Origin: Lachnospiraceae bacterium 46-15
Lineage (GTDB): Bacteria > Bacillota > Clostridia > Lachnospirales > Lachnospiraceae
Assembly: GCA_041223665.1 (NCBI GenBank)
Contig: JBCLQO010000006.1
Coordinates: 35,365-67,364 of the forward strand
Length of the DNA: 32,000 nucleotides
Direction of reading: 5' to 3'
In this document: one piece after another, positions 873 through 24,470 of the stretch
How the letters are laid out: every line of letters starts with the position of its first letter
Numbering within the stretch: the stretch's first letter is position 1
Made by a program: the position numbers and the translations under genes
The notes under the pieces: model-generated
Told to the model about the DNA's origin: nothing
The model's database searches: none
What the model saw: the letters and a program-made list of their open reading frames with translations, nothing else

Positions 873-3800
873 TTATTTAATTGTTGATTTTTTACTCATA
901 CCGCCTTTTTTCTTAAGGTTGGTAAGCAGTTTCTTCTTCTGCGCTTTCTTTTTAATCTTCTTCACAGTAACGGCAACCTTCTTAGCTGTCTTACTGAAAG
1001 CTTTCTTACCAATCGTTGGAGCTTTCTTACCCTGGAAGGTAACTTTTTTCAGCTTCTTACAGCCCATGAATGCCTGCTTTCCAATGGATTTAACATTCGC
1101 GCCAACCGTCAGCTTTGTGGCATTCTTACAGCTCTTGAAAGCGTTGTTGCCTATCTTTGTTACCTTATAAGTCGTACCATTAATCTTTACTGTAGATTTA
1201 ACTGTTATGCTCTTAAGCTTTGCATCTCCCTTTATGGCCGCCGCAGTTTTGCTCTTAGCATTGTCAATTTTATATTGAATGCCAGATATTGTTACCATGT
1301 CTGATACCGGGCGGTTCGGAACTGGCCCTGGTCCCGGATCTGGCGTTACTGCCGTAAACCGATACGTCACTAACTGCTGTGTCAGACGTGTCAGCTCTGC
1401 CACACTTGGCGCCTCTTTTGCCAGCTCTGCCTGTAAAGCCTTCTTAATAGCCTCATAAGCATTCCAGCTTTCCGCAGTATAACGGCCATTATTGCTGGTT
1501 TCTGCCTTACTCAATGCTGCCTGTGCTGCTGCTTTTGCTTTGCTAAGTTCTTCACTTGGCGGTACAATTGCTGGCGCTTCATCAAATTTGTACTCTTTCA
1601 GCAATTTCGTCAAGCGTATCAGTTCTGCTTCGTCAAGCTCTTCCTTCGCCAGTTCTGCCCGCAGCGCCGCCTTAATAGCTTCATATCCTGCCCAGCTAGC
1701 TTCAGTATAACGGCCTCCATTTACAGCCTCTGCATTGTTCAGCGCCTCTCTTGCCGCATTAGCCGCTTCTGTCGCCATCGTAGTTTCCAGACATGACATA
1801 GCAGCATTAAAGAACTCCCTGACCTTCTGTATCTCCTCAACGGAAAGATTGTCCAATCCCGGGCTGGCTGCCGCATTAGCGATATCATATTGCCGCCTGA
1901 ACTCTACCCAGCTCTCTGCCGTATATTTCGTTCCGCCGCTTTCCAAAGGTACATTACCCCTGCTCATAATAGCGCCCGCTCTTTCTATAGCCGCCTGCGC
2001 CTCTGCTTTCGCCTTTTCCTGCGCTTCCTTGCTCACCACCTTAATAACGAGCTGTTTTCCCTCTGTCGACGCATCTCCAAAGGTGGCGCTGACCACGAGC
2101 ACTATCTGGCCTGGATTCGTTACACGAAGCGTTTTCTGTCCGCCGTCACCGTCAATAATGGAAGCTCCTGCCGTATTCTGGGCTCCTGTTCCAAGTCCAT
2201 ATTCCCGAACCAGCATCGGATCTACGGAATGTTTCAAACAGCCATATCTATTGGTTCGTACTACTACTTTATCATCCATCACAACCGTAGCTGATTCAGC
2301 GCCTGACTCCAGAACAATTTCGGAAGGACCTGTATAAGAAATTGCACCAATCGCACACTCACAAGTATTTTCACTTCTATCCTGCAGGTTTCCATCGGCT
2401 GTCACCAGGTTTTCCTTAGCTGACGCATAAATGTCCGGCTTTCTATTTGCTTTCGACTGAACAAGCGCCTGGGCTCTGTCGTAAGCTGCCCTATATGCCT
2501 GCCAAGTCTGCCGTGTATACCGGAGTTCATCCGTATCTTTCAGCTCTCCGCTTTCATTTTCCACCTGCTTATAAGCAGATTTCCTTGGGTTCTCCTTAAC
2601 ATATTCTGCCAGCGCTGTCTTAGGTTCTTCAAGCCCTTTGCACTTATAAATATAGGTCAATACTGCTCCTGTATCGTCCAATTCACAAGATTCAATATCA
2701 TCTTCTGACACAGTTATCCATTCCTCAGCACCAGCTCCTGTGCTTGGATTTTTTATATACAGGAAATTATTTTCTGCCGCATTTGCCGGGAATACAATAT
2801 CTTTATCTGTATCCTTCGCTAGCTGCTTCTCACCTGTCTCTACCTCAACTTTCAGCCGATAGTCCTCATACGCGCTCGGCATTTCAACCTCTGTCGTACT
2901 GCCTTCCGTATTTTCCAGCCATGTACAGCTCTTCAGCTTGTAGGCAGAAGGATTGCCGCTCAAAACCACATTCGGCTCATGCCCCCGCAGATAATTATCA
3001 AAAAATTCTTTCACTTCAGCCGCCGTATCCACGCTGGCTTCTGGCGCCGTATAATTTCCCAGAAAAGCACTATCTCCTTCCTCACCTGAACGTGTATAGG
3101 AGTACATTTCAAAGTTCTTTATTGTACCTGTATATATTTCTTTGCTAGTTTTTGCAGGAGTCGAATCATCTCCATGCTCCCACATTTCGGCATTATACCC
3201 AATTGTGAATTTCGGGAATTCCGGCGTATGCTCTCCAGGCTTCAGATTCCCGGACACTGCTCTGGCCGTACCGCGTTTTCCACCTGCATACAGTTCAAAC
3301 TTCCCTCCTGTATACACCGCTACCATCTCTATGTTCTGTCCCAGGAACTCCTTGACATCAATCGTTGTTGTTGGCCACAGTTTCCCATTCGCATCGCTTG
3401 GGTTCCATGCACATCCAAACACCTGCAGATTAACCGCGCTTCCGCTCGGCTCTAACTGTATTCCATACTGACTGTTCAACTTTCCGATAATAGACTGCTT
3501 CCCTGTTACTGTTGCGGGCAGCCCCAGCTCACAGCGAATTAAAAAGCTCTTAGTATCGGAATTTGCACTTTCGTGCCCCATATCAAAAATCTGGTTAATC
3601 GTACTTCCATCTGCATCAGTGTTATTTGCTGTTACCATTCCCTGAACGCTTCCATCTTTATTTACTTTAAAACCTTCTTCATAAATAAACTGTACGTCAG
3701 GGTTGTCCGTAGTTCCCGTGATTCCTCCGGTATCCTCCATCCAGACTTTCTGTTCATCAAACGTTCTGTCTATATATACTTTTGGATTGAACTCATCGTT

Positions 3801-6344
3801 AGACAAATCTGCAGTGCCCACGTCTGCCGGCTTCAATCCCACATAACCTTTATACTCATACTCTGCCCGCAAATCTGCCAAAAGCTCTTTATAATATTCC
3901 TCAGATTCATATGCAACTTCCACTGTTCCCGAGGGGTCTGAACTTCCATATGCACCTACTGCGTCAACAGCTTCTTCATAAACCTCTTTAAAAGTTTTCC
4001 AGCTCCTCTTGGAATACTGTGCTTCTGCCTGATCTTTCGCCAGAGAAGCAATCCTGTTCATTTCCTGTGCACGTCCGGAGGTCTGAACCTCAGCTTTCAG
4101 CGCGTTATATGCATCTATTGGTGAATTCAGCGGATCATATTCGTAGTATACGGTCAGATAACTCTTTCCATTCTCATCCGGTCCCTGAACATCACCTATT
4201 GGATATGCCTGAAGCTGGCTGTCTCCGTTCAGGATGACTGTCATCACTTCGGCAAAACGGTTGGTAGTACTCAAGGTTGCTTCAAAGCCATAGGTTACAT
4301 TATCCCTGAATTTCTCATCCGCTGTCATGTCTGTTTTGGTATTACCGTTTTTCTTATACCATTTATAATTCTCCACATTATAATTGCCGTCTATTGCCGC
4401 GGAAATTCTGGAGTTCCCCGCCGTTTCATTATATGTCGGCTCCTTAACGCTCAGTCCTATATCACCTGTTTCCTCCGCAATCCGGGTACCCATAATTTCA
4501 ATTTCGCTGATGCCGATATTCGGATTCATCTCATCCGCATTCGACGCTCTCTCCTTGAATTCAAAACGGACATATCTCTTGAGACGTTTTGTGGTATAGT
4601 TTTCCTCCGGAATGGAAAGTTCCTTAAAACTCTGGCCTCCTGTATTTGTATCTGTCGCATTGCCGACTACTTCCCACGTTCCCGGAAAAACAGGTTCTCC
4701 GCCTGCCAACTCAATATTATTCTCATTTTCGGGCACGCCGTCTGGCTCTTCATACTCGTCCGAAGTGTAAACCATGTAATTATTTGCCGAGTCAAATGCA
4801 AACCATTTAACTTTGATAGAACTTACCAGCGTTGTCGTATCTTCTCCCAAATCAAGTACAAAGTTAGCAGCATCCCTCGTATTATTCAGCATGTTGATAC
4901 CTTTTTGATTTTCAGCATCAAACACGGACGGAACCCAATGTTCAACATCACCTGCCGTTGTTTCTACTTTTCCGTCAATTGCATATTCCGGCGCCAGGGT
5001 GATTGTGTCCTCCCCGTCTTTATATGCATCTGCTCCTGAGTAAGCTGCAATCCGCGTGGAGCCGCCGGCACTGATCCCTAACGCCACGTTCTCCTCACCC
5101 TGCGGTTTCCAAACATCTCCGTGAATTTCAAACTCACGCAGCCCGCCTTCTGCCATGCCGCTGTCTGACGCTGTATTTACGCTCTTAACTACCAGACGGA
5201 CATATCTTTTAAGCGTCGTAGTCCTAAGCTTCCTGTTCACATTATCTGAGTCATTAAACACATCCAATGGCTGCCGAATCGGATTTGCCGCCGTATCACT
5301 GTATACCTGGCGGTCAAACTCTGCTACGGTTGTCCAGGTAGAGCCTTCCTTTCCAGCATAATCCAACTCTGCCCATGAAACCCCCGTACTGTTTTCACCT
5401 AATGTTGACGTACATGTATCCGAAGTCTCTATGGCATATCTGCTTCCCCATCCCCGTGCATTCCATCTAAGCTGAATCTCCGAAATTTTCGTTTCTGTGG
5501 AATGCAGGTCATAAACAATATAGTTTACCTTCCCGTTTCCGTTATTCCATGTGGGTGTGCTCCTCGGCTGCCAATAATCGTTATCAGCCGTACCAGCCTC
5601 CGTATTCCCATGTCCATTAATGGTATTTAGAGGACTCGTATCATTGTTCATCCTTCCAGTATACGCTTTTACGGTTGTTTTCCCGCCGGCACTCGCTCCC
5701 AAAGCCACATTTACGCTCTCTGCTTTCTGGCTCAGCCTTCCAGCCTCATTAATATACATACGGCTTCCGGAGATGAATTTATTCTCTCTTTCTGTACTGC
5801 TTCCAGCTGTCTCCTGTACTTCTACGCATACATGACGCGCCTTCTGCGCCATATCAAAAACAGCTTCCTGCCAGCCATCTGACGTCCATTTATCGTCGGC
5901 CGGCGTCTCATAGACCTGAAGCCATCCTGACTCATCAATCGACTGTACGTCCCCTGTATCTACATTAGATACGTAAATCTTACACCGTTCAATACTGCCA
6001 TCTTCTCCGATTGGTAAATAGCTCACAGAACCCAAAAGCTTGGAGGTTTCAAGGGTAAAATAAAGCTTTTTTCCTTCTGCCGAAGACAATTCATTCGTAA
6101 ACATGTACTTCGACTTTACTTTCAAGCCGCTGACTGGCGTTGAAGCATTCTCCTCACTGCCACTCAAATTAGAGGTCACACTTAACTTTCTTTCATCTAC
6201 TGGCCTATACTTATACTGCAGCCCCATGTCCTGCTCTGTCTGCGCAGCTGCCTGCGCAGAAATCCCTGTCAGATTGGAAAACGGAACACCCGTTACCACC
6301 AAAGTTCCCGCCAGGAAACCCGCTAAAAATCTTTTCCACTTCAT
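873..6344 (-). CDS. Large secreted cell-surface protein (1823 aa). Contains discoidin/F5-8-type-C-like and LamG-like lectin modules, FIVAR repeats, an Ig-like module, a C-terminal BspA-type leucine-rich repeat and a poly-Lys tail.
   Basis: The ORF track gives 873..6455. I place the start at Met38 (ATG 6344-6342) because AAGGAG lies 8 nt upstream and it opens a signal peptide, MKWKRFLAGFLAGTLVVTGVPFSNLTGISAQAAA. Recurrent NVALG.SAGG...W...Y.V..S blocks look like discoidin domains. Repeated (R/K)YT.ESW..Y..A helices look like FIVAR. The tail ...TKIGNNAFKSCKNATKLTVGANVKSIGKQAFMGCKKLKKVTF looks like BspA-type LRR. Confidence 0.85.
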   Translation of the reverse strand: MKWKRFLAGFLAGTLVVTGVPFSNLTGISAQAAAQTEQDMGLQYKYRPVDERKLSVTSNLSGSEENASTPVSGLKVKSKYMFTNELSSAEGKKLYFTLETSKLLGSVSYLPIGEDGSIERCKIYVSNVDTGDVQSIDESGWLQVYETPADDKWTSDGWQEAVFDMAQKARHVCVEVQETAGSSTERENKFISGSRMYINEAGRLSQKAESVNVALGASAGGKTTVKAYTGRMNNDTSPLNTINGHGNTEAGTADNDYWQPRSTPTWNNGNGKVNYIVYDLHSTETKISEIQLRWNARGWGSRYAIETSDTCTSTLGENSTGVSWAELDYAGKEGSTWTTVAEFDRQVYSDTAANPIRQPLDVFNDSDNVNRKLRTTTLKRYVRLVVKSVNTASDSGMAEGGLREFEIHGDVWKPQGEENVALGISAGGSTRIAAYSGADAYKDGEDTITLAPEYAIDGKVETTAGDVEHWVPSVFDAENQKGINMLNNTRDAANFVLDLGEDTTTLVSSIKVKWFAFDSANNYMVYTSDEYEEPDGVPENENNIELAGGEPVFPGTWEVVGNATDTNTGGQSFKELSIPEENYTTKRLKRYVRFEFKERASNADEMNPNIGISEIEIMGTRIAEETGDIGLSVKEPTYNETAGNSRISAAIDGNYNVENYKWYKKNGNTKTDMTADEKFRDNVTYGFEATLSTTNRFAEVMTVILNGDSQLQAYPIGDVQGPDENGKSYLTVYYEYDPLNSPIDAYNALKAEVQTSGRAQEMNRIASLAKDQAEAQYSKRSWKTFKEVYEEAVDAVGAYGSSDPSGTVEVAYESEEYYKELLADLRAEYEYKGYVGLKPADVGTADLSNDEFNPKVYIDRTFDEQKVWMEDTGGITGTTDNPDVQFIYEEGFKVNKDGSVQGMVTANNTDADGSTINQIFDMGHESANSDTKSFLIRCELGLPATVTGKQSIIGKLNSQYGIQLEPSGSAVNLQVFGCAWNPSDANGKLWPTTTIDVKEFLGQNIEMVAVYTGGKFELYAGGKRGTARAVSGNLKPGEHTPEFPKFTIGYNAEMWEHGDDSTPAKTSKEIYTGTIKNFEMYSYTRSGEEGDSAFLGNYTAPEASVDTAAEVKEFFDNYLRGHEPNVVLSGNPSAYKLKSCTWLENTEGSTTEVEMPSAYEDYRLKVEVETGEKQLAKDTDKDIVFPANAAENNFLYIKNPSTGAGAEEWITVSEDDIESCELDDTGAVLTYIYKCKGLEEPKTALAEYVKENPRKSAYKQVENESGELKDTDELRYTRQTWQAYRAAYDRAQALVQSKANRKPDIYASAKENLVTADGNLQDRSENTCECAIGAISYTGPSEIVLESGAESATVVMDDKVVVRTNRYGCLKHSVDPMLVREYGLGTGAQNTAGASIIDGDGGQKTLRVTNPGQIVLVVSATFGDASTEGKQLVIKVVSKEAQEKAKAEAQAAIERAGAIMSRGNVPLESGGTKYTAESWVEFRRQYDIANAAASPGLDNLSVEEIQKVREFFNAAMSCLETTMATEAANAAREALNNAEAVNGGRYTEASWAGYEAIKAALRAELAKEELDEAELIRLTKLLKEYKFDEAPAIVPPSEELSKAKAAAQAALSKAETSNNGRYTAESWNAYEAIKKALQAELAKEAPSVAELTRLTQQLVTYRFTAVTPDPGPGPVPNRPVSDMVTISGIQYKIDNAKSKTAAAIKGDAKLKSITVKSTVKINGTTYKVTKIGNNAFKSCKNATKLTVGANVKSIGKQAFMGCKKLKKVTFQGKKAPTIGKKAFSKTAKKVAVTVKKIKKKAQKKKLLTNLKKKGGMSKKSTIK

Positions 6345-6506
6345 ACTTAAAATCTCCTTCGCAAAATAACTGGTGTACTTTACACCCAATTTATCAGATA
6401 ACAAAAAACTCTGGAACTTTTTCTGTCCCTCTGAACATACCATCTCCTTTCCCATAAAAATCCCCTTTTATAGAAGTTTTTGCAAAACTTTTTCCTAATC
6501 TTTTTA

Positions 6507-6535
6507 ATTATAGCATACACATTTATAGAAAGCAA
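6507..6535 (-). promoter_or_regulatory. Promoter candidate for the surface-protein gene
   Basis: Minus strand reads TTGCTT (6535-6530), a 17-nt spacer, then TATAAT (6512-6507). This implies a 5' UTR of about 160 nt. Confidence 0.45.
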
Positions 6536-6612
6536 CTTAGAATTCCTCCCTCTCCCACTCCTGACTTAGTTTGAATTCACAAAAAACAAAACGAAAATTC
6601 CAAAAAATTTTA

Positions 6613-6641
6613 TTGACTTTTGTCACATTCTATGATATAAA
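6613..6641 (+). promoter_or_regulatory. Promoter candidate for tRNA-Trp
   Basis: TTGACT (6613-6618), a 17-nt spacer, then TATAAA (6636-6641), ending 17 nt before the mature tRNA 5' end. Confidence 0.55.
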
Positions 6642-6658
6642 GATATAGTGTTTTGTAC

Positions 6659-6729
6659 AGGGGATTGGTCAAATGGTATGACAGGAGTCTCCAAAACTCT
6701 TAGCGGGAGTTCGATTCTCTCATCCCCTG
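6659..6729 (+). tRNA. trnW: tRNA-Trp, anticodon CCA; the 3' CCA is not encoded
   Basis: Hand-folded cloverleaf. Acceptor stem AGGGGAT/ATCCCCT. D stem GTCA/TGAC. Anticodon stem GGAGT/ACTCT with loop CU-CCA-AA. T arm GGGAG-TTCGATT-CTCTC. Discriminator G at 6729. Confidence 0.93.
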
Positions 6730-6740
6730 CTATATACATA

Positions 6741-6782
6741 AGGGTTTAGTCGGTATCTGCCGATTAGACCCTATATTATTTG
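6741..6782 (+). terminator. Hairpin plus T-rich tail downstream of tRNA-Trp (first of two)
   Basis: A 13-bp stem, AGGGTTTAGTCGG / CCGATTAGACCCT, with two G-U pairs and a 6-nt loop, followed by ATATTATTTG. Confidence 0.45.
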
Positions 6783-6792
6783 AATCTGTTTT

Positions 6793-6822
6793 GGGCGGCT
6801 TTTCAGCCGCCCGTTTTTATTT
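6793..6822 (+). terminator. Rho-independent terminator
   Basis: GGGCGGCT-TTTC-AGCCGCCC followed by GTTTTTATTT. The U-tract is on the plus strand only. Confidence 0.7.
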
Positions 6823-6854
6823 CTATAAAGCTGCTGCTTATGCAGCTCCATATA

Positions 6855-7628
6855 TTAGTATTTTGGCTTATTTTTCTGGTAAATCAGTTTTAAACCTTTC
6901 AAAAGCAAGGCATCGTCAATTATCACATTTTCTATACAATGCGGAATAATACATTTTGCAAATCCACCCGTGGCAATAACAGTAGCACTCTCCCCCAGTT
7001 CCCTGTTAATCCTCTGAATCATCCCATCAAGGCAGGCTGCATTCCCATAAATCAACCCGCTTTTCATACAATCAATCGTGTTTGTACCAATCAGCTTCTT
7101 CGGAGCTTCGACACTGATACGGGGAAGCTGGGACGTCCGGCTGGTCAGGGAATCTGAAGAAACACGAATCCCTGGAAGAATCATCCCCCCAATATAATTC
7201 TGCTTTTTATCCACCACAGAAATAGTCGTAGCCGTCCCAATATCAATAATAATCAACGGCGGTTTATATTCGGCGATACCTGCCACTGCATTCGCTACTA
7301 AATCACTTCCAACCTGCGCCGGATTGTCCATCAATAAATTCAGTCCGGTCTTGACCCCCGGCCCGATAATGACGGCCTCCTTATCCGTAATTTTCCTTGC
7401 AGCTTCTTTTACAATATTCGTAATGGGCGGCACCACAGAAGAAATGATACAGCCCTGAACCTCCACAGCGTCCAGATGATACATTTCCAATACATTTTTA
7501 AAGCTTATTGCATATTCGAGGACAGTCCTGGTAACCTCTGTGGAAAGCCGTTCTACGAAAAGAATTTCCTCATTTTTTATACATCCGATTACAATGTTTG
7601 TATTTCCGATATCTATTGCTAAAATCAT
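6855..7628 (-). CDS. coaX: Type III pantothenate kinase (Baf/CoaX family)
   Basis: 257 aa. The N-terminus MILAIDIGNTN is an ASKHA phosphate-1 motif, and DIGTATT and ATGG motifs follow later. AAAGGAG RBS upstream. Confidence 0.9.
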   Translation of the reverse strand: MILAIDIGNTNIVIGCIKNEEILFVERLSTEVTRTVLEYAISFKNVLEMYHLDAVEVQGCIISSVVPPITNIVKEAARKITDKEAVIIGPGVKTGLNLLMDNPAQVGSDLVANAVAGIAEYKPPLIIIDIGTATTISVVDKKQNYIGGMILPGIRVSSDSLTSRTSQLPRISVEAPKKLIGTNTIDCMKSGLIYGNAACLDGMIQRINRELGESATVIATGGFAKCIIPHCIENVIIDDALLLKGLKLIYQKNKPKY

Positions 7629-7699: not shown

Positions 7700-8338
7700 T
7701 TACTGTGTCTGCCTGTATTGAAATAAAACCCGGCAGATAACGCTTACCAAAACAGCGGATACAATCGCTTCCGGAACTCCGTTGATTCCGATGACAGACA
7801 GGATAAACGTGTAAACCGCCCCTTCTGCCACGTTGTTGGCAGCAGCATAAGCTGCACGGAAAAATACATAAATCAAGTTCATCACCAACAGCGTATTTGT
7901 TAACGCTCCCGCAATCCCGGCAGCTGCAAGGGAAAGCATCTGCTTCCCGGCAGTATGTTCAAGCCCACGGTATACATACCAGGGAACCACACCCACCAGT
8001 ATCCTCGGCACAAAGCAGATAATCACGCTTCCTATTCCGCCATGCACCTCCCCCAGCTCAAAAAATGGAGTGAATACAAAGCTGGTTGCCGTCGGGTTCA
8101 TCGTATTGTTGATAAAGCTTGTCATTCCAAATACAAATCCCAAAAATGCACCCTTTTTAGGCCCAAGCATCAGGGAACCGATAATGACCGGTATGTGGAT
8201 AATCGTTGCACGGGTAAATCCCAGAGGAATATAGCCCAGAAACGGTGTGAACGCCAGGATGATAATCAGTGCCGCGAAAAGTGCAACCTGTACCATGCCC
8301 AGGGTTTGTGAAGTGTTTTCATGTGATGTTGTTTTCAT
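7700..8338 (-). CDS. ECF transporter S-component-like membrane protein; pantothenate (PanT-like) specificity is suggested only by linkage to coaX
   Basis: The product is polytopic and hydrophobic. I moved the start to Met17 (ATG 8338-8336) because AAGGAGAG lies 7 nt upstream. The gene sits 71 nt upstream of coaX with no convincing terminator between them. Confidence 0.75.
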   Translation of the reverse strand: MKTTSHENTSQTLGMVQVALFAALIIILAFTPFLGYIPLGFTRATIIHIPVIIGSLMLGPKKGAFLGFVFGMTSFINNTMNPTATSFVFTPFFELGEVHGGIGSVIICFVPRILVGVVPWYVYRGLEHTAGKQMLSLAAAGIAGALTNTLLVMNLIYVFFRAAYAAANNVAEGAVYTFILSVIGINGVPEAIVSAVLVSVICRVLFQYRQTQ

Positions 8339-8389
8339 GTTTTTTCTCTCCTTGTTATTATTCTCGTTGTTGAGATACAATACCAAGAC

Positions 8390-8418
8390 AGTATAGCATA
8401 TCTGCGCAGAGAGTTCAA
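8390..8418 (-). promoter_or_regulatory. Promoter candidate for the S-component/coaX pair
   Basis: Minus strand reads TTGAAC (8418-8413), a 17-nt spacer, then TATACT (8395-8390). Confidence 0.5.
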
Positions 8419-8464
8419 AAGCAAATTCACCAAAACAGCTTCCAAATCAACTGCCTTGGTGAAT
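8414..8464 (-). terminator. Rho-independent terminator closing the SIR2 operon
   Basis: Minus strand has a 14-bp stem, ATTCACCAAGGCAG / CTGTTTTGGTGAAT, with two G-U pairs and a 12-nt loop, followed by TTGCTTTTG. It starts 13 nt after the SIR2 stop codon. Confidence 0.6.
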
Positions 8465-8476
8465 CTATGTATCTAT

Positions 8477-9700
8477 TTATCCACAAAATCCATGTATCAA
8501 TTCCGGCAGTTCGTCAAAAGTCGTCCAGATAGGAATAATACCGTGCCGTTTCCAATAATGGTACTGGGCAAAAAGCCTGTCGATGAGCTGGATGTTTTTA
8601 TATACAAAATTTTTATCTTCCAGGAACTCCCGACGGATTTTATCTTTTTTTACCTCCGAATCCCCTCCTGCTGCTGATATTAGAAGTTCTTCCTCGTATC
8701 TCTTATCTACTTCTTCTTGATACAATTCATGAAACAAGTCGTTAAGGCAGAAAAAAATGTAATGCCTGGGCTTACATGCACAATCTACATTCTTAATAAT
8801 CCTCCGAAAATTATAATCATCTCCCGAAAATCCTATAAATACACAGCTCGTATCCATCAGCGCTTTGGCCTGGACAGAATTTTGCCAGCTATATGCTTTC
8901 TGCTCCATCTGATAGTAACTATGTTCTGTCAAAATCATATGCTCAGATTCTTTGCTGAACCTATTTCTTTTAATTGACAATGCCCCGTGGGGATGATGGA
9001 TATTTATCCTCTGAGAATTGTGAATTTTTCTCTCGTCACAATCGCAAATCACCTGCACTGCATCGGAAGATACGTTGGCAACTTTATCCAGACAGAACTC
9101 CAGCAAATCATCATAATTATACGTAATTACACTGCCTTTTTTCTGCTTTTTCAACAGCTTTGCCAAATATCCCACTGCCTGATTCTTCAATTTGTTCTTA
9201 AGCTCTGTCTCTTCCATAACCGTCTGCAGGGAGTCACGCAGCAATGCTTTCAGTACCCGTTCCTGAAGCCTTCTCTTTTCCCTTTGATTCCCTCCTTCAG
9301 GTATCAGCATTTCAATATAATTCCACATATATTCCGCTGATTCCAGCATATTTACGCCTTTCCAAAAATCTTTAAACTTTCCTTGCAGCGCTTTTTCTGC
9401 TATTGAATGATATGCCGGATAACCTTTTGTCTCCTGCAGCGCCCTGTGTTTTGCGCTTTGGAAGATTCTTTCCCCTTCTTCTATCTCATGGTTTAAAGGC
9501 ATTTCATTTTCTAATTCTGAAAGCCTGGCCCACATTTTAGCCAAAAGTGTTGTCCAGTTGGGAAGCCCTGCGGGCGCGCTGATTCCCGCGCCTAATATCC
9601 ATGTGACGTTCTCATCTGTTACTTCTTTTTTCAGCATGTCGTAATGCTTTCTATTTAACTTATAAATATCTTTCCCCAATATTTCTTTTGTCGTCAGCAT
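8477..9700 (-). CDS. SIR2-like (SIR2_2 / ThsA-DSR-type) putative NAD+-hydrolysing effector, 407 aa
   Basis: The ORF track gives 8477..9739. I place the start at Met14 (ATG 9700-9698), which has an AAGGGAG RBS and lies 2 nt after the upstream stop codon. Four motifs occur in the canonical order: WILGAGISAPAGLPNW, VITYNYDDLLE, IHHPHG, then MILTEHSYY and FIGFSGDDYNFRRI. The Asn-to-His spacing is 43 aa. Confidence 0.8.
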   Translation of the reverse strand: MLTTKEILGKDIYKLNRKHYDMLKKEVTDENVTWILGAGISAPAGLPNWTTLLAKMWARLSELENEMPLNHEIEEGERIFQSAKHRALQETKGYPAYHSIAEKALQGKFKDFWKGVNMLESAEYMWNYIEMLIPEGGNQREKRRLQERVLKALLRDSLQTVMEETELKNKLKNQAVGYLAKLLKKQKKGSVITYNYDDLLEFCLDKVANVSSDAVQVICDCDERKIHNSQRINIHHPHGALSIKRNRFSKESEHMILTEHSYYQMEQKAYSWQNSVQAKALMDTSCVFIGFSGDDYNFRRIIKNVDCACKPRHYIFFCLNDLFHELYQEEVDKRYEEELLISAAGGDSEVKKDKIRREFLEDKNFVYKNIQLIDRLFAQYHYWKRHGIIPIWTTFDELPELIHGFCG

Positions 9701-9702
9701 TT

Positions 9703-12570
9703 TTACAACTCCCTTTTTCCATGCGCTAACTGTCTCCACAAATCATTCATTTTATCCAAAAGAAGATACATTTCCTGCGGCGACTGCATATTTGACAATC
9801 TGCTTATTTCTTTTATTTTATCGAATTTATTTGTCCGGAAGATCTCCATACAGGCATTTAAATATCCTTCAAGCTCAACTTTACATCCCTCGTCAAATTC
9901 CTCTTGATATTCCCATAAAATCTCATCAATCCTGTCGCATAGGCAGTCAGAATAGTCTTCCTTTCTGCAATACTTAAACCCCTGGGTTTTCCAGTACTTC
10001 ATCTTTTCTTCAATTTTTTCCCTTTCCTGGAGTTTCAATTTTCCTTCTACCCCATAGAGCATTTTCATTTCTGAGCCAAACCGAAAAGTTTCCAGCTTTG
10101 TTCTTGGAAACGCAAGTTCGATATCCCAAGTCTCATAAATAAGGCTTAAAATGAAATCTTCCATTGGAATTCCCAAAATCTGGGCTGCAATACAATCCGC
10201 ATAACTTTCTTTCATAGAATCAATAAGCACAAGAATCACATCGCCAACGGTCGCTATATCATTTTTATCTATGTGCACTTCCTCTGGAATAAGCACCTGA
10301 TTCCCAATGTATATGTCAAATAATGCCTGCAGCACTCTTTCTTCCTCTGGATCATATCTGTCATCTTTCTGAGCCTCCAACTTATATTCGGAAGTCTCCC
10401 TTAAAATGTTTGCTCCTGAAAATTTGATCCCCTGTGTACCCAGATACTTTATCAAATCCTCCGCAACCCGGTGCTGATATTTCATATACTTCCGGTAAGT
10501 ATATGAAAAAAAAGAATTACCCGTTTCACGTTCAATAGATTGAAAAACCTCTTCTCTTCCAAGCTCCCCCATTACTGTCTGAAGGTTACTTCCAAAAAAT
10601 GCAAATTCTTCCCATCCCTCGCTGCCCTCTTCCATTTTCCTGCACATTTCCTCAATAAGTTCTGTTTTCATTTCCTCCCTTCTCCGCCAAACGAATTCCA
10701 GGCTTTTCTTCTTCACTTCTTCCCATTCCGTCGGCGAAAAACGGTTTTCCAAAGCATAAAAAACAGTTTTTCTCATATGCTCAGTAAGACTTGTTTTCAA
10801 CCCATTGCTTATTATCCATGCAGAATAAGATGAAAAACTCCTTATCAAATGCCCAAACCGTTCCACTCTTTTTCTTTCCCCGCAAAAATGCAGGCATTCA
10901 TGGAGAATTCTGAACATCGTACCTTTTATATCATACAAGCTCATCTCCGGCACTGTTATAATAATCAGAGAATGCCCTTCTTCATCCGCCGGATCCATAT
11001 ACGAAAAAATATCACTTGCTGTCGTCACGTCACAACCTCCACTCATGATTACAAACGTATATGTTTCCTTCTGCCCTTCATTCTCCCCGCTTTTCGTTTC
11101 CATCAGCATTTGCGCTGTTTTATTAATATACTGGTTATAGAAGAACAGCAGTTTCGTTGCAGAACCGATTGACGGGTGCGATAAAGACTGCCCTTCTATA
11201 AAAGAACGGTCAGATCTCTGCATGTCCGCCAGATAGTCTCCTATATTTTCCCGAAAAATCCCTACCGCCGAAAGCAGCCGTTCTACCAAGATTTCTTTTA
11301 CTTCTATATCTTCTGCTTCCTCTAACATCCTCATGGTTCTTTTCATATTGCACACCATGGCTTTAAATGCACTTCCAATAATTTCCTGAATATCAAAACA
11401 ATGAGATTCACGTATCAGGCCCAAAAAGCTTTTCATAACTGCCTGCAGTCCATTTACAAGCCGTATTGGTTTTCCATACTCTTCTACAAGCCCTGCTAAA
11501 TCCTCAATTAAATCTACAAACTCTCTTTGATATTCTTCATATGCGCCATCTATTCCATTCCCCGGCACTTCAAACTGCACTTCCTTTTCCACTCCCACCC
11601 GAATAGATGAACATAGATTCCTGATATATGCCGGAAACTGCTCATTGCCAGGATTAAAAAGCTTCGAATCATAAAATAGCGGTATAAAAAGACCAAACGG
11701 CATATCAGATAATATCAGGCAATCTGAATTGCCAAACATCTGATAGAGTTCTGACTGCTTTTCAATTTTATCAAGATTTTGCGCAACGCATATATTTTCC
11801 AGTTCCGCATCAAAATACTTTTGGAACTGACCCGCTGATACACCTTCTCTGAGGTTTACACGTATAGAAAGTTTTACATTATCAAGCATCAGCTTATCCA
11901 AATTCTGCAGCCCTTCTTTTGCAAATCCTGTAATCGCATAACTATTTGACAGCACCGGATAACTCCTGTCTCCTTCTATGACCTGCGTCTCCCTCAAAAT
12001 ATCCAAAATGTCAATAACTTTCTGAGGATTATCACTGAGGAACAACAGTGTAAAATCCGCATAGCCGATTGACGGCATGACTGCGCAGTGGACTTCTTCC
12101 AATGGAATTGCTCTCTTATCTGCAGCATCTTTGATAGAAATTACAATTTTGTCCAATAGTTCTTCTCTTCCCGCTACAAATTGTTTTGATAAATTAATTA
12201 CAGAAACCGAAATAAAAGGATATCGTTTTAACAGCTCCACACAAGAATCGTTACTGTCACGATATCCCATCTGCTCCCATATATTATAAGCAAATCCTTG
12301 CTTTTCCAGACATTCTCTTACCTCTGGCTTTGGCATATATAATTTCAACGTGTATTTATCTTGAAAGGTATCTCCAATTATAATGTTGCCTGCCCTTTCA
12401 CACACACCTTTCGGCCTCAACTGATACCACTCGCGTGTGCAGTGAATATCCATCCCATCATAATGCCCAAACATCATATATTGATAATCTCTCGTATCAT
12501 CTTGGCTAATACATGATATTCGTTTCTTTAAAGTAATCAGCATTCCATTAAATCCATCCGTGCTGTTCAT
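9703..12570 (-). CDS. Large hypothetical protein, 955 aa, partner of the SIR2 gene. No P-loop was seen. An internal HExxH motif is present.
   Basis: The ORF track gives 9703..12603. I place the start at Met12 (ATG 12570-12568) because AAGGAGGTG lies 6 nt upstream. HECLH is encoded at 10888-10902. I recognise no family. Coding status is supported by the long open frame, the strong RBS and coupling to the next gene. Confidence 0.8.
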   Translation of the reverse strand: MNSTDGFNGMLITLKKRISCISQDDTRDYQYMMFGHYDGMDIHCTREWYQLRPKGVCERAGNIIIGDTFQDKYTLKLYMPKPEVRECLEKQGFAYNIWEQMGYRDSNDSCVELLKRYPFISVSVINLSKQFVAGREELLDKIVISIKDAADKRAIPLEEVHCAVMPSIGYADFTLLFLSDNPQKVIDILDILRETQVIEGDRSYPVLSNSYAITGFAKEGLQNLDKLMLDNVKLSIRVNLREGVSAGQFQKYFDAELENICVAQNLDKIEKQSELYQMFGNSDCLILSDMPFGLFIPLFYDSKLFNPGNEQFPAYIRNLCSSIRVGVEKEVQFEVPGNGIDGAYEEYQREFVDLIEDLAGLVEEYGKPIRLVNGLQAVMKSFLGLIRESHCFDIQEIIGSAFKAMVCNMKRTMRMLEEAEDIEVKEILVERLLSAVGIFRENIGDYLADMQRSDRSFIEGQSLSHPSIGSATKLLFFYNQYINKTAQMLMETKSGENEGQKETYTFVIMSGGCDVTTASDIFSYMDPADEEGHSLIIITVPEMSLYDIKGTMFRILHECLHFCGERKRVERFGHLIRSFSSYSAWIISNGLKTSLTEHMRKTVFYALENRFSPTEWEEVKKKSLEFVWRRREEMKTELIEEMCRKMEEGSEGWEEFAFFGSNLQTVMGELGREEVFQSIERETGNSFFSYTYRKYMKYQHRVAEDLIKYLGTQGIKFSGANILRETSEYKLEAQKDDRYDPEEERVLQALFDIYIGNQVLIPEEVHIDKNDIATVGDVILVLIDSMKESYADCIAAQILGIPMEDFILSLIYETWDIELAFPRTKLETFRFGSEMKMLYGVEGKLKLQEREKIEEKMKYWKTQGFKYCRKEDYSDCLCDRIDEILWEYQEEFDEGCKVELEGYLNACMEIFRTNKFDKIKEISRLSNMQSPQEMYLLLDKMNDLWRQLAHGKREL

Positions 12571-12610
12571 GCTGCCACCTCCTTGTACAAATCTTTCTAT
12601 CAATCATGAA

Positions 12611-12645
12611 AGCCCTGTCTATAGATTTCTCCATAGCACAGGGCT
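12611..12645. repeat. Imperfect inverted repeat/hairpin in the leader of the 955-aa gene
   Basis: AGCCCTGT...ACAGGGCT is 8 bp perfect, with 5 further pairs after a 1-nt bulge. On the minus strand it is followed by TTCATGATTG, which is not a good U-tract. It ends 41 nt upstream of the ATG at 12570. Confidence 0.5.
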
Positions 12646-12667
12646 GCCCTTCATGAACGTCATGTTA

Positions 12668-12829
12668 TCATATTCCTCTGCTTACCGGACTGAAAATCCT
12701 TGTTTTCTCTGAATACTCATGCATCGGCATACGCAAATCCTCTTTAGGAGAACGCATATTGCTCTTTTTCCCAGCAGGGGCTACATTCTTTAACCACAAT
12801 TTCTTTTTATCCAACTTCTTTCCCGCCAT
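12668..12829 (-). CDS. Possible small basic protein (53 aa), hypothetical
   Basis: This is the internal Met12 of track ORF 12668..12862. AAGAGGTG lies 5 nt upstream of ATG 12829-12827. The product is MAGKKLDKKKLWLKNVAPAGKKSNMRSPKEDLRMPMHEYSEKTRIFSPVSRGI. No recognisable family, so it may be non-coding. Confidence 0.25.
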   Translation of the reverse strand: MAGKKLDKKKLWLKNVAPAGKKSNMRSPKEDLRMPMHEYSEKTRIFSPVSRGI

Positions 12830-12871
12830 ACCTGCACCTCTTGTCTCCAATAATGCTACCATAGAACAAAC

Positions 12872-12907
12872 GATAGCTATACAAAATATCTATGCGTATA
12901 GCTTATC
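12872..12907. repeat. Near-perfect inverted repeat (possible operator) at the head of the islet
   Basis: GATAGCTATAC, 13 nt, then GTATAGCT(T)ATC. The arms are 11 nt with one extra T in the right arm. Confidence 0.5.
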
Positions 12908-12960
12908 CCATGTACCAAAAAATATACTATTTCTATGCTGCTTGCCACCAGCATTATTGA

Positions 12961-12999
12961 TTGCAAAGAAAGCAGGATGAACCGAAATTCAACCTGCTT
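12961..12999 (-). terminator. Terminator candidate after rplQ (end of the alpha operon)
   Basis: Minus strand reads AAGCAGG-T-TGAA-TTTCGG-TTCA-T-CCTGCTT, which is 11 bp with one T-T mismatch, followed by TCTTTGCAA. It starts 21 nt after the rplQ stop codon. Confidence 0.55.
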
Positions 13000-13020
13000 G
13001 ATCCCATAAAGTTTCTGCTC

Positions 13021-13557
13021 TTATACAAGCTCCAGAAGAACTTCCATCGCTGCGTCGCCTTTACGAAGACCAATCTTTACAATCCTGGTATAACCGCCGT
13101 TGCGGCTCGCATACTTCGGAGCGATTTCTGTAAATAACTTCTCAGCCAAGTCAATTTCTTTCGTATTTCTCTTTTTGCCGGCTGCTTCCTGCGGAACTTC
13201 TTTTACTGTGTAGAGCACTTTGTTCATCTGGCGTCTTGCGTGAAGCCTGGAAGGAAGATCTTTTTTGATTTCCTTCTGAACTTCGTCATAAACGGTAACT
13301 TTCTTTCCGTCCACAACTTCTTTCACTCTCTTGCCATCTTTGTCCTTACGCGGTACTTTTGCAGTAACTGTAACAGTCTCGTAATTGTCTTTCTCTTTTA
13401 CGGCAAGTGCAATCAGACCTTCTGCAACCTTACGGATTTCTTTTGCCTTTGCCTCTGTTGTAACAATTTTTCCATGCTGGATTAAGGAAGTTACCTGTCC
13501 TCTGATTAAAGCCTTTCTCTGGCTTGATGTTCTGCTAAGTTTTCTATAACCTGCCAT
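13021..13557 (-). CDS. rplQ: 50S ribosomal protein L17, long form (178 aa)
   Basis: MAGYRKLSRTSSQRKALIRGQ...HARRQ...GGYTRIVKIGLRKGDAAMEVLLELV. I moved the start to Met11 (ATG 13557-13555) because GGAGG lies upstream. Confidence 0.93.
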   Translation of the reverse strand: MAGYRKLSRTSSQRKALIRGQVTSLIQHGKIVTTEAKAKEIRKVAEGLIALAVKEKDNYETVTVTAKVPRKDKDGKRVKEVVDGKKVTVYDEVQKEIKKDLPSRLHARRQMNKVLYTVKEVPQEAAGKKRNTKEIDLAEKLFTEIAPKYASRNGGYTRIVKIGLRKGDAAMEVLLELV

Positions 13558-16140: not shown

Positions 16141-16602
16141 GTAATTTTCCTCCATTTTCCCGGCCGGTCCACGCAGCCCACTGTCCCGGGTGGACAGTGC
16201 CTGAAATGCTGTGCGCTCCCTGCGCCTTCATAAATATTGTCCCTAATTGAGATACCTTCTATCTGACAGCCCTAAAACAAGCTGGCTTTTTTCCGGTATC
16301 CAGCCGCATAAAATACGGCCTTTCCGTACTTACGACGGTACGCATAAGTCCGGTATTTGAGCAATATATTTCGTGTAATGCAACAGCAGCAAAATGGAAA
16401 AGGAAGCTTTGTAGGCTTCTTGGCATTTTTCTCCGTTGCCACTCTACTATATATTGTCATCAGTATGACAACACCGCCTGGCGCGTCACACTGCAGCCGC
16501 TTTAAATCTTGCAAACATAAACCTGGAAGTTCGATTCGCCCTGCTCACCGAACAGCTTTTCCACGAAACACACGCACTCTGCGCCTATTCCGTATCCAAT
16601 GC

Positions 16603-22229: not shown

Positions 22230-24179
22230 CTAACACACCTCCGCGCCAGCAGGCATTTCCTTCTCCGGCACCATTAAGGACAGTACGCCGTCCGCATCCT
22301 CAGCACAGAGCAGCATACCTTCCGAAAGCACTCCCGCCAGCTTCGCAGGCTTTAGATTCACAAGTACCAGTACTTTCTTTCCAACCATCTCCTCCGCGCT
22401 GTAGTGGGCTTTGATACCTGATACAATCTGCTTCACCTGGCTTCCTATTTTCACCTGGGAACAGAGCAGCTTCCGGGATTTCTTCACCTCTTCGCAGGCG
22501 ATGATTTCCCCCACCTGGAACTGCAGCTTCTCAAAATCATCAAAAGTAATTTCCGGTTTCGCCTCAATGTCAATCACAGGCTCCTCCGGCTTCTCTTCCT
22601 CCGACTGTCCGTAAAGCTCTTCCACCTTTGCCAGCACTTCATTCAAATCCTGGCGTACAAACAGGATTTCCGGTTTCTCCGTCACTTTGCTGCCGGATAC
22701 ATAATGTCCCCATGTCTCCATATCCTTAAGGCTGCGTTTCTTGGCATTGAGCTGCGCCAGGATTTTCCCGGAAGTCTCCGGCATAAACGCCTCCAGAAGC
22801 GCCGCACCGATAGAAATACCCTCCACCAAGTTGTAGAGAACCGTTGACAAACGCTCTTTCTTTGACTCATCCTTCGCCAGCACCCAGGGCATCGTCTCAT
22901 CAATATATTTATTGCAGCGTTTAAACAATGCAAAAATTTCCGTAATCGCATCCGCCACGCGCAGTCCATCCATCTTTTCCGTCACTTTCTTCGGCACTTC
23001 GAGAGCAAGCGCTTTCAACTCTTCATCCACGGATTCTGCAGCCCCTTTGTCAGCAACGACACCGCCAAAATATTTATTTGACATAGAAATCGTACGGTTT
23101 ACCAGATTCCCGAGCGTATTTGCCAAATCAGAATTCAGGCGCTCTACCATCAGCTCCCAGGAAATCACGCCGTCATTTTCAAAAGGCATCTCATGAAGGA
23201 CAAAATACCTCACTGCATCCACACCGAAAAATTCTGCCAAATCATCTGCATACAGCACATTCCCCTTCGACTTGCTCATCTTGCCGTCCCCCTGCAGCAG
23301 CCATGGGTGCCCAAACACCTGCTTCGGCAGCGGCAAATCCAGCGCCATTAGAAAAATCGGCCAGTAAATCGTGTGGAACCGGATAATATCTTTTCCAATC
23401 AGGTGCAGTTCTGCCGGCCAGTTCTTTTTAAACTGCTCGGTACTCTCTCCCTCGCAGTCATAACCAATTCCCGTAATATAGTTTGTAAGGGCATCCAGCC
23501 ATACATACACCACATGCCTATCATCAAAAGATACAGGAATCCCCCATTTAAATGAAGTCCGCGACACACACAAATCCTGAAGTCCCGGCAGGAGGAAATT
23601 GTTCATCATCTCATTTTTCCGGGATACTGGCTGGATAAACTCAGGATGTGCATTGATGTGCTCAATCAGTCTGTCGGCATATTTGCTCATTTTGAAGAAA
23701 TATGCCTCCTCCTTTGCAGGCTGTACCTCACGGCCGCAGTCCGGGCATTTCCCGTCCACAAGCTGCGACTCTGTGAAAAAGGACTCACACGGAGTACAGT
23801 ACATGCCTTCATAATGTCCTTTATAGATATCTCCCTGCTCATACAGTTTCTTAAAAATCTTCTGTACCTGCTTTTCATGGTCAGCATCCGTTGTGCGGAT
23901 GAACTTATCATAAGAGGTGTTCATCAAATCCCAAATTCTCTTAATCTCAGACGCCACATTATCCACAAACTCTTTCGGAGTAATTCCTGCTTCCCCAGCC
24001 TTCAACTCTATCTTCTGTCCATGTTCATCCGTCCCTGTCTGGAAAAATACATCATAGCCCTGCTGCCGTTTAAACCTTGCGATGCTGTCTGCAAGCACGA
24101 TTTCATAAGTATTTCCAATGTGGGGCTTGCCTGAAGTATAAGCGATTGCCGTAGTCATATAAAACTTTTTCTTTTCCAT
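22230..24179 (-). CDS. metG: Methionine--tRNA ligase with a C-terminal tRNA-binding (Trbp111/EMAP-like) domain
   Basis: MEKKKFYMTTAIAYTSGKPHIGNTYE (HIGH motif), the KMSKSKGN motif, and zinc knuckles CTPC and CPDC. The true start is Met72 of the track ORF (ATG 24179-24177). The upstream 71 codons of that ORF are the T-box leader read through. Confidence 0.95.
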   Translation of the reverse strand: MEKKKFYMTTAIAYTSGKPHIGNTYEIVLADSIARFKRQQGYDVFFQTGTDEHGQKIELKAGEAGITPKEFVDNVASEIKRIWDLMNTSYDKFIRTTDADHEKQVQKIFKKLYEQGDIYKGHYEGMYCTPCESFFTESQLVDGKCPDCGREVQPAKEEAYFFKMSKYADRLIEHINAHPEFIQPVSRKNEMMNNFLLPGLQDLCVSRTSFKWGIPVSFDDRHVVYVWLDALTNYITGIGYDCEGESTEQFKKNWPAELHLIGKDIIRFHTIYWPIFLMALDLPLPKQVFGHPWLLQGDGKMSKSKGNVLYADDLAEFFGVDAVRYFVLHEMPFENDGVISWELMVERLNSDLANTLGNLVNRTISMSNKYFGGVVADKGAAESVDEELKALALEVPKKVTEKMDGLRVADAITEIFALFKRCNKYIDETMPWVLAKDESKKERLSTVLYNLVEGISIGAALLEAFMPETSGKILAQLNAKKRSLKDMETWGHYVSGSKVTEKPEILFVRQDLNEVLAKVEELYGQSEEEKPEEPVIDIEAKPEITFDDFEKLQFQVGEIIACEEVKKSRKLLCSQVKIGSQVKQIVSGIKAHYSAEEMVGKKVLVLVNLKPAKLAGVLSEGMLLCAEDADGVLSLMVPEKEMPAGAEVC

Positions 24180-24189
24180 GTTCCTTCTT

Positions 24190-24470
24190 CCTTTCATTAA
24201 AAAAGCCCTCCCAATATCATATTGAGAAGGCGAGTTTTCCCGCGTTACCACTTCACTTTGTCCATTCCTCACAGAATGAACCTCTGCAAGTGCGAATTTC
24301 ACACTCTTCCGCTGTAACAGGCGGTTCCTGTCGCAGCCTTGCCGCACTCCTGTGCAGTTCGGTGCGCCGCTCAGAAGCCATCTTCCATCCATCTTCCTAT
24401 ATCCCTCTCAGCCGCCGGGAATTCTCTGTAATATTCCAAAGGATGTACTCTCTTCGTCTCTGCGTTTTCC
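24190..24470 (-). promoter_or_regulatory. T-box riboswitch leader, Met-specific, with intrinsic terminator
   Basis: On the minus strand, the Stem I base reads GACGAAGAGAGUAC, followed by the CAGAGA...GGCUGAGAG elements. The Specifier-loop 3' side reads GGAUG-GAAG-AUG-G-CUUC, placing AUG at 24381-24379. The T-box sequence is AAGUGGUAACGCGGG (24253-24239). The terminator GCCUUCUCAAUAU-GAU-AUUGGGAGGGC plus UUUUUU lies at 24233-24199. Confidence 0.85.

Follow-up and report, generated by a model that had tools for sequence, protein, structure and literature searches.

A strain-variable islet downstream of rplQ in Lachnospiraceae bacterium 46-15 carries a conserved three-gene SIR2 operon, a candidate anti-phage system

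The islet and its insertion site

The DNA analyzed here (the window) is a stretch of 32,000 nucleotides (nt) of Lachnospiraceae bacterium 46-15. Between the ribosomal-protein gene rplQ (L17) and a gene for the S-component of an energy-coupling-factor (ECF) transporter it contains an islet with three genes on the minus strand, which encode a small protein (S), a large protein (A) and a SIR2_2-domain protein; S, A and SIR2 travel together as a mobile, strain-variable operon. The positions of the genes, motifs and signals are summarized in Table 1.

Table 1. Features of the islet and of its immediate flanks (window coordinates; RBS, ribosome-binding site; aa, amino acids).
Feature	Position	Strand	Remarks
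ECF-transporter S-component gene	7700-8386		adjoins the distal end of the islet
Intrinsic terminator of the islet operon	8412-8467	-	19-bp hairpin, then UUUGCUUUUG
Inserted islet, strain-variable	8427-12963	-	boundaries by comparison with the empty site
SIR2_2-domain protein	8477-9700	-	407 aa
H238	8987-8989	-	SIR2 gene
N195	9116-9118	-	SIR2 gene
GAGIS loop	9578-9592	-	SIR2 gene
Large protein A	9703-12570	-	955 aa; ATG at 12570-12568; AGGAGG RBS
E788-x-x-x-D792 (KESYADC)	10195-10209	-	A gene; long helix; candidate third metal ligand, gluzincin-like
HExxH (H557-E558-C-L-H561)	10888-10902	-	A gene; within LHECLHFCGERKR
Small protein S	12668-12829	-	53 aa; first gene of the operon
Candidate sigma-70-type promoter	12921-12948	-	GTGGCA-16-TATATT; consensus scan only, 9/12 positions; weak
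Intrinsic terminator of rplQ	12964-12999	-	flank, kept in the empty site; the insert starts directly after it
rplQ (L17)	13021-13557	-	adjoins the proximal end of the islet

A preliminary description of the window, made from its sequence, had reported the genes for A and SIR2 as a co-directional, translationally coupled pair between two terminators, and these observations were confirmed. By folding, the rplQ hairpin (12970-12999), with UUUCUUU behind it, has -14.6 kcal/mol (z -4.1), and the hairpin 3' of the SIR2 gene (8422-8467) has -24.9 kcal/mol (z -5.1) and is followed by a U-tract; a simple consensus terminator scan picked up neither of the two. The TAA stop codon of A (9705-9703) is followed after 2 nt by the ATG of the SIR2 gene (9700-9698), with AAGGGAG ahead of it. 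The candidate promoter is located about 90 nt upstream of S, and no RNA family was found within the islet by Rfam. The GC content of the insert is 39.6% compared to 46.5% for the rest of the window; the insert is the lowest in GC among all segments of the same size, and is placed about 5 standard deviations (SD) under the non-overlapping ones (mean 46.9%, SD 1.4%). The low-GC islet of the preliminary description is therefore real, but the dip is smaller than the earlier spot counts implied.

The insertion site was compared among contigs that encode exactly the L17 protein of the window, and three arrangements were found, i.e. the same islet (most contigs), an empty site, and a different allele; the insert is missing in about 3 of 23 contigs. 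At the empty site (locus L033, GCA_910576005.1, and two similar contigs) the gene order is rplQ, ECF S-component, coaX, and since this close relative has rplQ directly beside the S-component gene, the islet is an insert. The preliminary description had asked for such relatives, and they exist; its comparison to an ecfA-ecfA'-ecfT-truA slot of Bacillus-type genomes is inapplicable to this gene order. In blastn alignment, the flanks of L033 match the window up to 12964 on one side and from 8426 on the other; where the window has 4.5 kb, L033 has about 22 nt, which places the insert exactly between the rplQ terminator and the S-component promoter region. Compared to the empty-site strain, the flank upstream of the islet is 96% identical, whereas the downstream flank has diverged further, to 88%. 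Over 16.6 kb, the window shares 92.7% identity with Hominisplanchenecus murintestinalis DSM 111139; an exact-sequence look-up of the CoaX protein of the window matched no record.

No target duplication, direct repeat, inverted repeat, integrase, transposase or other recombinase was found at the insert ends, as had been noted before for integrase, transposase and direct repeats. The missing target duplication suggests that the islet is gained and lost by recombination across the conserved flanks. An origin of the window copy by an insertion sequence (IS) or integrase was considered and rejected, because target-site duplication and inverted repeats are missing; a homologous exchange by way of these flanks is the likelier origin.

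The different allele (locus L036, GCA_948654515.1, 7665-11753) occupies the same site as the islet and is decaying. Its A gene is split into parts of 142 and 787 aa, S is absent, and three motifs of A are lost (HECLH to HKFLY, SHPSIGSATK to LNVFSNYSVR, and SGGCD to MGQNE). The SIR2 protein of this allele (P0066, found on 21 contigs) has kept every catalytic motif and is 58% identical to the SIR2 protein of the window. Homology of L036 to the window resumes only within the 3' end of the SIR2 gene (window 8608); this break and the 58% identity indicate that the site holds diverged alleles.

Encoded proteins and their conservation

The SIR2 protein is predicted to be an NAD+-consuming effector. 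It matches PF13289 (SIR2_2) with 58.1 bits (cut-off 24.5 bits; E 1.4e-15), and PF13289 is present in all 118 clusters of SIR2 homologs. The hallmarks of a defence-type SIR2 domain that had been recognized by eye were borne out in an alignment of 45 homologs: G37 and G39 of the GAGIS loop (G37-A-G39) are invariant, and Y194-N195-x-D197 and H236-x-H238-G239 are invariant or nearly so. The PADLOC matches are weak and cover the SIR2 core only (ThsA, 1.2e-12, as best match; LmuA(SIR2), 1.8e-11; several 'SIR2' models), and the NCBIfam matches are restricted to the catalytic core. The relatives of the SIR2 profile in PDB are remote (ThsA, KomC and DSR2; E 1e-13 to 1e-7), and all of them are anti-phage NADases. 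For the approximately 90 C-terminal residues, there is no match in Pfam or PADLOC, and no SLOG, SAVED, CARF or Macro domain.

Protein A, together with 30 distant relatives, has no match in Pfam, PADLOC, NCBIfam, PHROGs or PDB sequences; the earlier statement that the large protein belongs to no recognized family holds, and A is not a housekeeping family. An AlphaFold2 model of A calculated with the family alignment reached a predicted local distance difference test score (pLDDT) of 87.6 and a predicted template-modelling score (pTM) of 0.89. The N-terminal alpha+beta region (about residues 1-330) is modelled with three beta-hairpins and an invariant G-x-x-D on each, followed by a four-helix segment, a small three-stranded sheet, a short helix that ends in HExxH, a long coiled hairpin, and further helices. 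A triple repeat in the N-terminal region is not claimed, for its support is weak and limited to units 2 and 3 (hhalign E 0.0018, probability 15%). With full-length A, Foldseek matched only the N-terminal part in PDB, and this weakly, to chlorite dismutase/coproheme decarboxylase with their tandem ferredoxin-like fold (E 0.01, template-modelling score 0.55-0.59), and a viral structure library contained nothing matching the model. The C-terminal half, represented by a confident model of the naturally truncated homolog P0029 (equivalent to residues 336-946 of A), had no credible PDB match (all probabilities at most 0.13).

In agreement with the preliminary description, A has no Walker A motif and one single HExxH motif (residues 557-561). 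Among 57 close homologs the H and G of this motif region are invariant, and the E and second H nearly so; all three residues H, E and H are kept without exception in 30 distant homologs, at about 20% identity. Residues E788 and D792 are invariant in both alignments. The other positions invariant down to about 20% identity are G564, E542, an arginine cluster (conserved motif G-E-R-K-R-x-x-R), and the loops S-G-G-x-D (conserved motif V-x-S-G-G-x-D-x-T) and H-P-S-I-G-S-A-T-K. HExxH plus ExxxD is the signature of gluzincins, and in the model of A the HExxH is located on a helix with a three-stranded sheet preceding it and with ExxxD downstream. Judged by this signature, A is likely a metal-dependent hydrolase.

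The small protein S (MAGKKLDKKKLWLKNVAPAGKKSNMRSPKEDLRMPMHEYSEKTRIFSPVSRGI; 53 aa, isoelectric point (pI) 10.4; GAGGTG RBS) is called as 'hypothetical protein' by public pipelines (P0315, Lachnospiraceae bacterium 46-15, 100% identical). An open reading frame (ORF) with ATG start and at least 50 aa is located upstream of A in 19 of 21 loci, compared to 10% in shuffled sequence; these ORFs are 51-70 aa in length, and most of them carry a GGAGG-type RBS. The peptides align in register at a V-x-A-G-x-x-S-x-L..S-P core, with subfamily-specific conservation in new loci, and for one divergent pair (L002 and L016) 32 third-codon-position changes stand against 10 second-position changes. The peptides are hydrophilic, and 18 of 20 are basic (pI at least 8.9). 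No Pfam or PDB relative and no helix-turn-helix (HTH) or other domain was found for S, which is probably disordered. A search with the S profile led back to the same gene order, the two most divergent matches again being directly upstream of a 949- or 961-aa protein and SIR2; with the conserved position of the ORF upstream of A, this defines the operon unit as S, A and SIR2.

Homologs of A were found in 64 clusters by a word-indexed search and in 870 clusters (at 50% identity) by an exhaustive search; nearly all are full length with 900-1060 aa, and none is annotated. Where the source organism is named, the A family occurs only in Clostridia, mostly in gut and rumen Lachnospiraceae. In three loci with A homologs of 47%, 30% and 23% identity (L001, L002 and L006), a SIR2_2 gene is located immediately downstream, with the two genes adjacent, co-directional, and overlapping or nearly so; the contexts are unrelated, i.e. 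flagellin and glycosyltransferase genes, the end of rplK-rplA, and a conjugative element beside IS66 and a type II restriction-modification (RM) system, respectively. Co-occurrence across genomes, proposed earlier as a check, was found throughout the GTDB species genomes, with SIR2 directly downstream in 21/21 clear A homologs, and in metagenome contigs for 15 of the 16 loci with enough downstream sequence. The 21 GTDB homologs are from Lachnospiraceae (including Acetatifactor, Blautia, Hungatella, Marvinbryantia and Butyrivibrio), Oscillospiraceae, Ruminiclostridium and Eubacteriales. The pairing of A and SIR2 spans 21-95% identity; more than 20 pairs of homologs are on common contigs, and the list of SIR2 homologs mirrors that of A contig by contig.

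A 22nd, weak GTDB match (locus L030, 18-9094, in a metagenome-assembled genome of Eubacteriales) comprises 881 aa, is similar in the HExxH region only (E 1e-11) and is without SIR2. It is flanked by genes for a SNF2-family helicase and a 522-aa unknown protein, and for a DUF3991/Toprim protein; this relative may represent a related sensor that works with other partners.

Two S-A-SIR2 paralogs of about 30% identity are present in H. murintestinalis DSM 111139 (L009 on contig 6, L017 on contig 2), at the ends of different ribosomal operons. One metagenome contig (L058, 423-3649) carries two facing copies of A, of which the first is accompanied by SIR2 and the second runs into the contig end; this suggests tandem or clustered modules in some genomes. 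Another S-A-SIR2 locus is placed inside an element with three serine recombinases, an integrase and PemK. No matches to the module were found on phages, plasmids or viral contigs.

The module is located directly 3' of translation-apparatus operons in 4 of about 18 distinct loci, i.e. after rplQ, rplA, rpsR and tsf. These sites are rpoA-rplQ (window 12964-13557), rplK-rplA (L002/L017, about 5479-7476, the second copy of H. murintestinalis), rpsF-ssb-rpsR in Blautia schinkii (L014, 5313-6555) and tsf in Marvinbryantia (L022, 5608-6549); in a further locus (L015, 5648-6319) the module follows the end of a V-ATPase operon. The placement after translation operons could be a landing-pad effect of the conserved flanks, or could have functional meaning.

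Proposed function and alternative explanations

The S-A-SIR2 unit is interpreted here, with moderate confidence, as a self-contained, horizontally mobile operon that most likely serves as an abortive-infection system against phages or other mobile genetic elements. In uninfected cells, SIR2 would be held inactive. A would act as sensor and activator, with its N-terminal alpha+beta domain and/or its helical body recognizing an infection cue, and would then perform a hydrolytic step with its invariant, putatively metal-binding HExxH...ExxxD site, possibly the cleavage of the disordered, basic S or of a segment of SIR2; S may serve as substrate, bait or regulator. This step would license SIR2 to hydrolyze NAD+, and the infected cell would be arrested. 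For the accessory and mobile nature of such a system, the data comprise the empty site, the allelic replacement, the low GC content, copies in integrative and conjugative or other integrative elements, and RM, Shosta or MADS neighbours in some loci. The decaying L036 allele, with an intact SIR2 despite a degraded A and no S, fits A as an activator of SIR2 and not as its neutralizer, and argues against A or S as an essential antitoxin.

Several observations weigh against this interpretation. The sole clear exception to the pairing of A and SIR2 is a metagenome locus (L055, contig Ga0099364_10025939, 3086-5785) with a full-length A and 1.4 kb of downstream sequence, and no SIR2. A location in defence islands, proposed earlier as a check, was not supported: the 126 neighbouring ORFs in 17 loci are mostly housekeeping, with single matches only to Shosta, MADS, PsyrA and pVip-like models, and gave no consistent signal of enrichment. 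The SIR2 gene of L036 might simply be unexpressed, which would weaken the argument for an activator. In A, a short helix has the HExxH at its C-terminal end and an Arg-rich stretch comes next, an arrangement atypical for peptidases, and no zincin fold or peptidase family was detected (no Pfam peptidase, no PDB profile match, and no peptidase among the Foldseek matches listed for two confident models). With the fold search negative, a peptidase, suggested by motifs only, is one option among others for the likely hydrolase; a small, divergent zincin core could escape Foldseek, and the negative result only makes a peptidase less likely.

None of the described anti-phage systems is matched by the trio, which probably represents a new system of this type. 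The preliminary description had proposed a new two-gene system, of which the novelty stands, as no named system was matched; the number of genes does not, as the conserved S was overlooked. An effector of the SIR2/NAD+-depletion type is known in kind, and the novel components would be those for sensing and regulation. No description of the trio was found in the literature; it may be one of the unnamed entries in the set of 39,848 candidate operons of PMC13069673, the supplementary tables of which were outside the search.

The system DSR2 has been described to sense a phage structural protein and to deplete NAD+. The islet resembles DSR1/DSR2 in combining a SIR2_2-type domain with a sensor sequence of about 700-1000 aa that is largely helical and not an ATPase, and the SIR2 family profile of the window matches DSR2 chains (E about 7e-10). 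However, DSR proteins are single polypeptides of at least 1000 aa with an N-terminal SIR2, whereas the SIR2 of the islet is a separate protein encoded downstream of A, with S as a third gene; the match to the NCBIfam Dsr1 model reaches 15.7 bits, far below its cut-off of 1400, and Foldseek links A to no DSR2 structure in PDB. DSR2 is also not known to have an HExxH...ExxxD site. SIR2-HerA (Nezha) and Lamassu-SIR2 (LmuA-SIR2/LmuB/LmuC) are likewise multi-gene systems with a stand-alone SIR2 effector under a large partner, but these partners are ATPases (HerA, RecA-like; LmuB, SMC/ABC), and A has neither a Walker A motif nor a PADLOC or Pfam match or a structural similarity to them. For SPARSA (short prokaryotic Argonaute with SIR2-APAZ), there is a weak match (2e-5) to the N-terminal SIR2 part of Aga_SIR2 only, and no Piwi or MID domain in A. 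The metallopeptidase CapP has been described to cleave the small protein CapH and thereby to switch on defence operons; CapP/CapH and Lit share with the islet an HExxH site, a small co-encoded protein and an immune effector, as a functional analogy only, since there is no relation in sequence or fold, S has no HTH, A is about five times larger than CapP or Lit, and a peptidase activity of A is putative.

The SIR2 systems Thoeris and Kongming have been described as gated by nucleotide signals. Thoeris type I (ThsA, SIR2-SLOG; ThsB, TIR) resembles the islet in a SIR2 NADase effector beside a separate sensor gene, with ThsA as the best PADLOC match; this match covers model positions 105-224 of 478 only, the SIR2 of the islet has no SLOG or Macro domain, and no TIR match was found in A, S or neighbouring genes. 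Kongming (KomA/KomB/KomC) also has three genes with a small stand-alone SIR2 effector, and KomC is the second-best PDB sequence match (7.8e-12), which is limited to the N-terminal NAD-binding loop (query 21-59); no deaminase-like KomA or HAM1-like KomB domain was found in A, S or the flanks. By analogy to both, the operon could still function in defence with A as a metal-dependent enzyme for nucleotide binding or processing, which makes, degrades or senses a small molecule (e.g. an NAD/ADP-ribose-derived or nucleotide signal) that controls SIR2. The Gly-rich loops at strand and helix ends and the Arg cluster around HExxH, typical of phosphate or nucleotide sites, would agree with such a role, as would the lack of a detected zincin fold. 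This reading of the motifs rests on sequence patterns only; A matches no cyclase, TIR, deaminase or nucleotidyltransferase family or fold, and the SIR2 protein has no recognizable ligand-sensor domain by Pfam or PADLOC, and we regard a nucleotide-signal control as unlikely.

A more specific form of the defence interpretation, in which we have little confidence, makes use of the sites after translation operons: a fold-novel, metal-dependent A would act on a disordered, ribosomal-protein-like S to gate the SIR2 NADase, with the placement reflecting a coupling to, or surveillance of, translation; S could be a bait or decoy for a phage factor that hits ribosomal or translation proteins.

A toxin-antitoxin-type addiction or stabilization module, with SIR2 as a constitutive toxin and A and/or S as an antitoxin needed continuously, would explain the tight translational coupling with the putative neutralizer upstream of the toxin, and the resemblance of the small, basic, probably disordered S to labile antitoxins; the module is also found on mobile elements beside PemK and ParE/Phd modules. 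Such a module is improbable in view of L036, whose intact SIR2 on 21 contigs with A broken and S missing is unexpected if the loss of an antitoxin were lethal, and in view of A, a 955-aa, enzyme-like protein with invariant catalytic-type residues that is far larger than an antitoxin requires.

It is also doubtful that the trio represents a non-immune circuit for peptide or protein modification, in which SIR2 would act as ADP-ribosyltransferase or deacylase on S or another target, and A would process or reverse the modification, either in a maturation like that of ribosomally synthesized and post-translationally modified peptides or in regulation. Some sirtuins ADP-ribosylate a small protein encoded in their own operon, to which the arrangement would be loosely similar; S resembles a short precursor, conserved in its core and variable at its termini, whose ORF precedes those of two enzymes, and accessory biosynthetic clusters are also typically strain-variable islets. 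However, S is rich in Lys and Arg and lacks a Cys/Ser/Thr-rich core. The contexts of the trio are unrelated and have no transporter, immunity gene or additional tailoring gene in common, and the SIR2 of the trio is of the SIR2_2 type, the characterized and solved relatives of which are NADase immune effectors.

Ordinary, lineage-specific housekeeping or regulatory genes with a role in translation or at the ribosome are very improbable, for although the placement after translation operons and the basic, ribosomal-protein-like S would suit them, strains with identical L17 differ in the presence of the insert, decaying alleles exist, the GC content is atypical, copies are found on conjugative and integrative elements as well as in numerous unrelated contexts, and the distribution is patchy, with two divergent paralogs in one genome.

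SIR2 NADases recur as effectors in bacterial immunity, and the systems are told apart by how they sense infection. If the operon is an abortive-infection system as proposed, it would add a new logic of sensing and activation to immunity by NAD+ depletion, a new fold that probably contains a catalytic site, and a micro-protein as integral component. For A, with its invariant metal-site signature, and for S, a basic protein of 50-70 aa, no relative could be detected in Pfam, PADLOC, NCBIfam, PHROGs and PDB, or among viral structure predictions. Its named hosts are Clostridia, mostly Lachnospiraceae, which are not model hosts and whose defence is poorly explored. Natural strains that differ at a single chromosomal site, by having the insert, an empty site or a decayed allele, provide a ready-made comparison.

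Other features of the window

The remainder of the window had been summarized as core metabolism, translation or repair, which does not apply to 873-6455 (minus strand): this ORF encodes a protein of 1860 aa with BspA-type leucine-rich repeats at its C-terminus, probably a surface protein. A tRNA gene (6659-6729) is located on the opposite strand between this BspA-like gene and coaX. An S4-Clostridia ribosomal-protein leader (16242-16324, minus strand) was found upstream of rpsM-rpsK-rpsD-rpoA-rplQ. The L17 protein itself, with 178 aa, appears to carry a Lys/Glu-rich insertion of about 65 aa in mid-protein, as its Pfam match stretches 97 model positions over residues 27-188 of the 188-aa ORF. 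A T-box leader (24223-24469, minus strand; 94.9 bits) and the longest metG ORF (22230-24392) overlap at the 5' end of this ORF, and the real start of the methionyl-tRNA synthetase is therefore located downstream of the first ATG.

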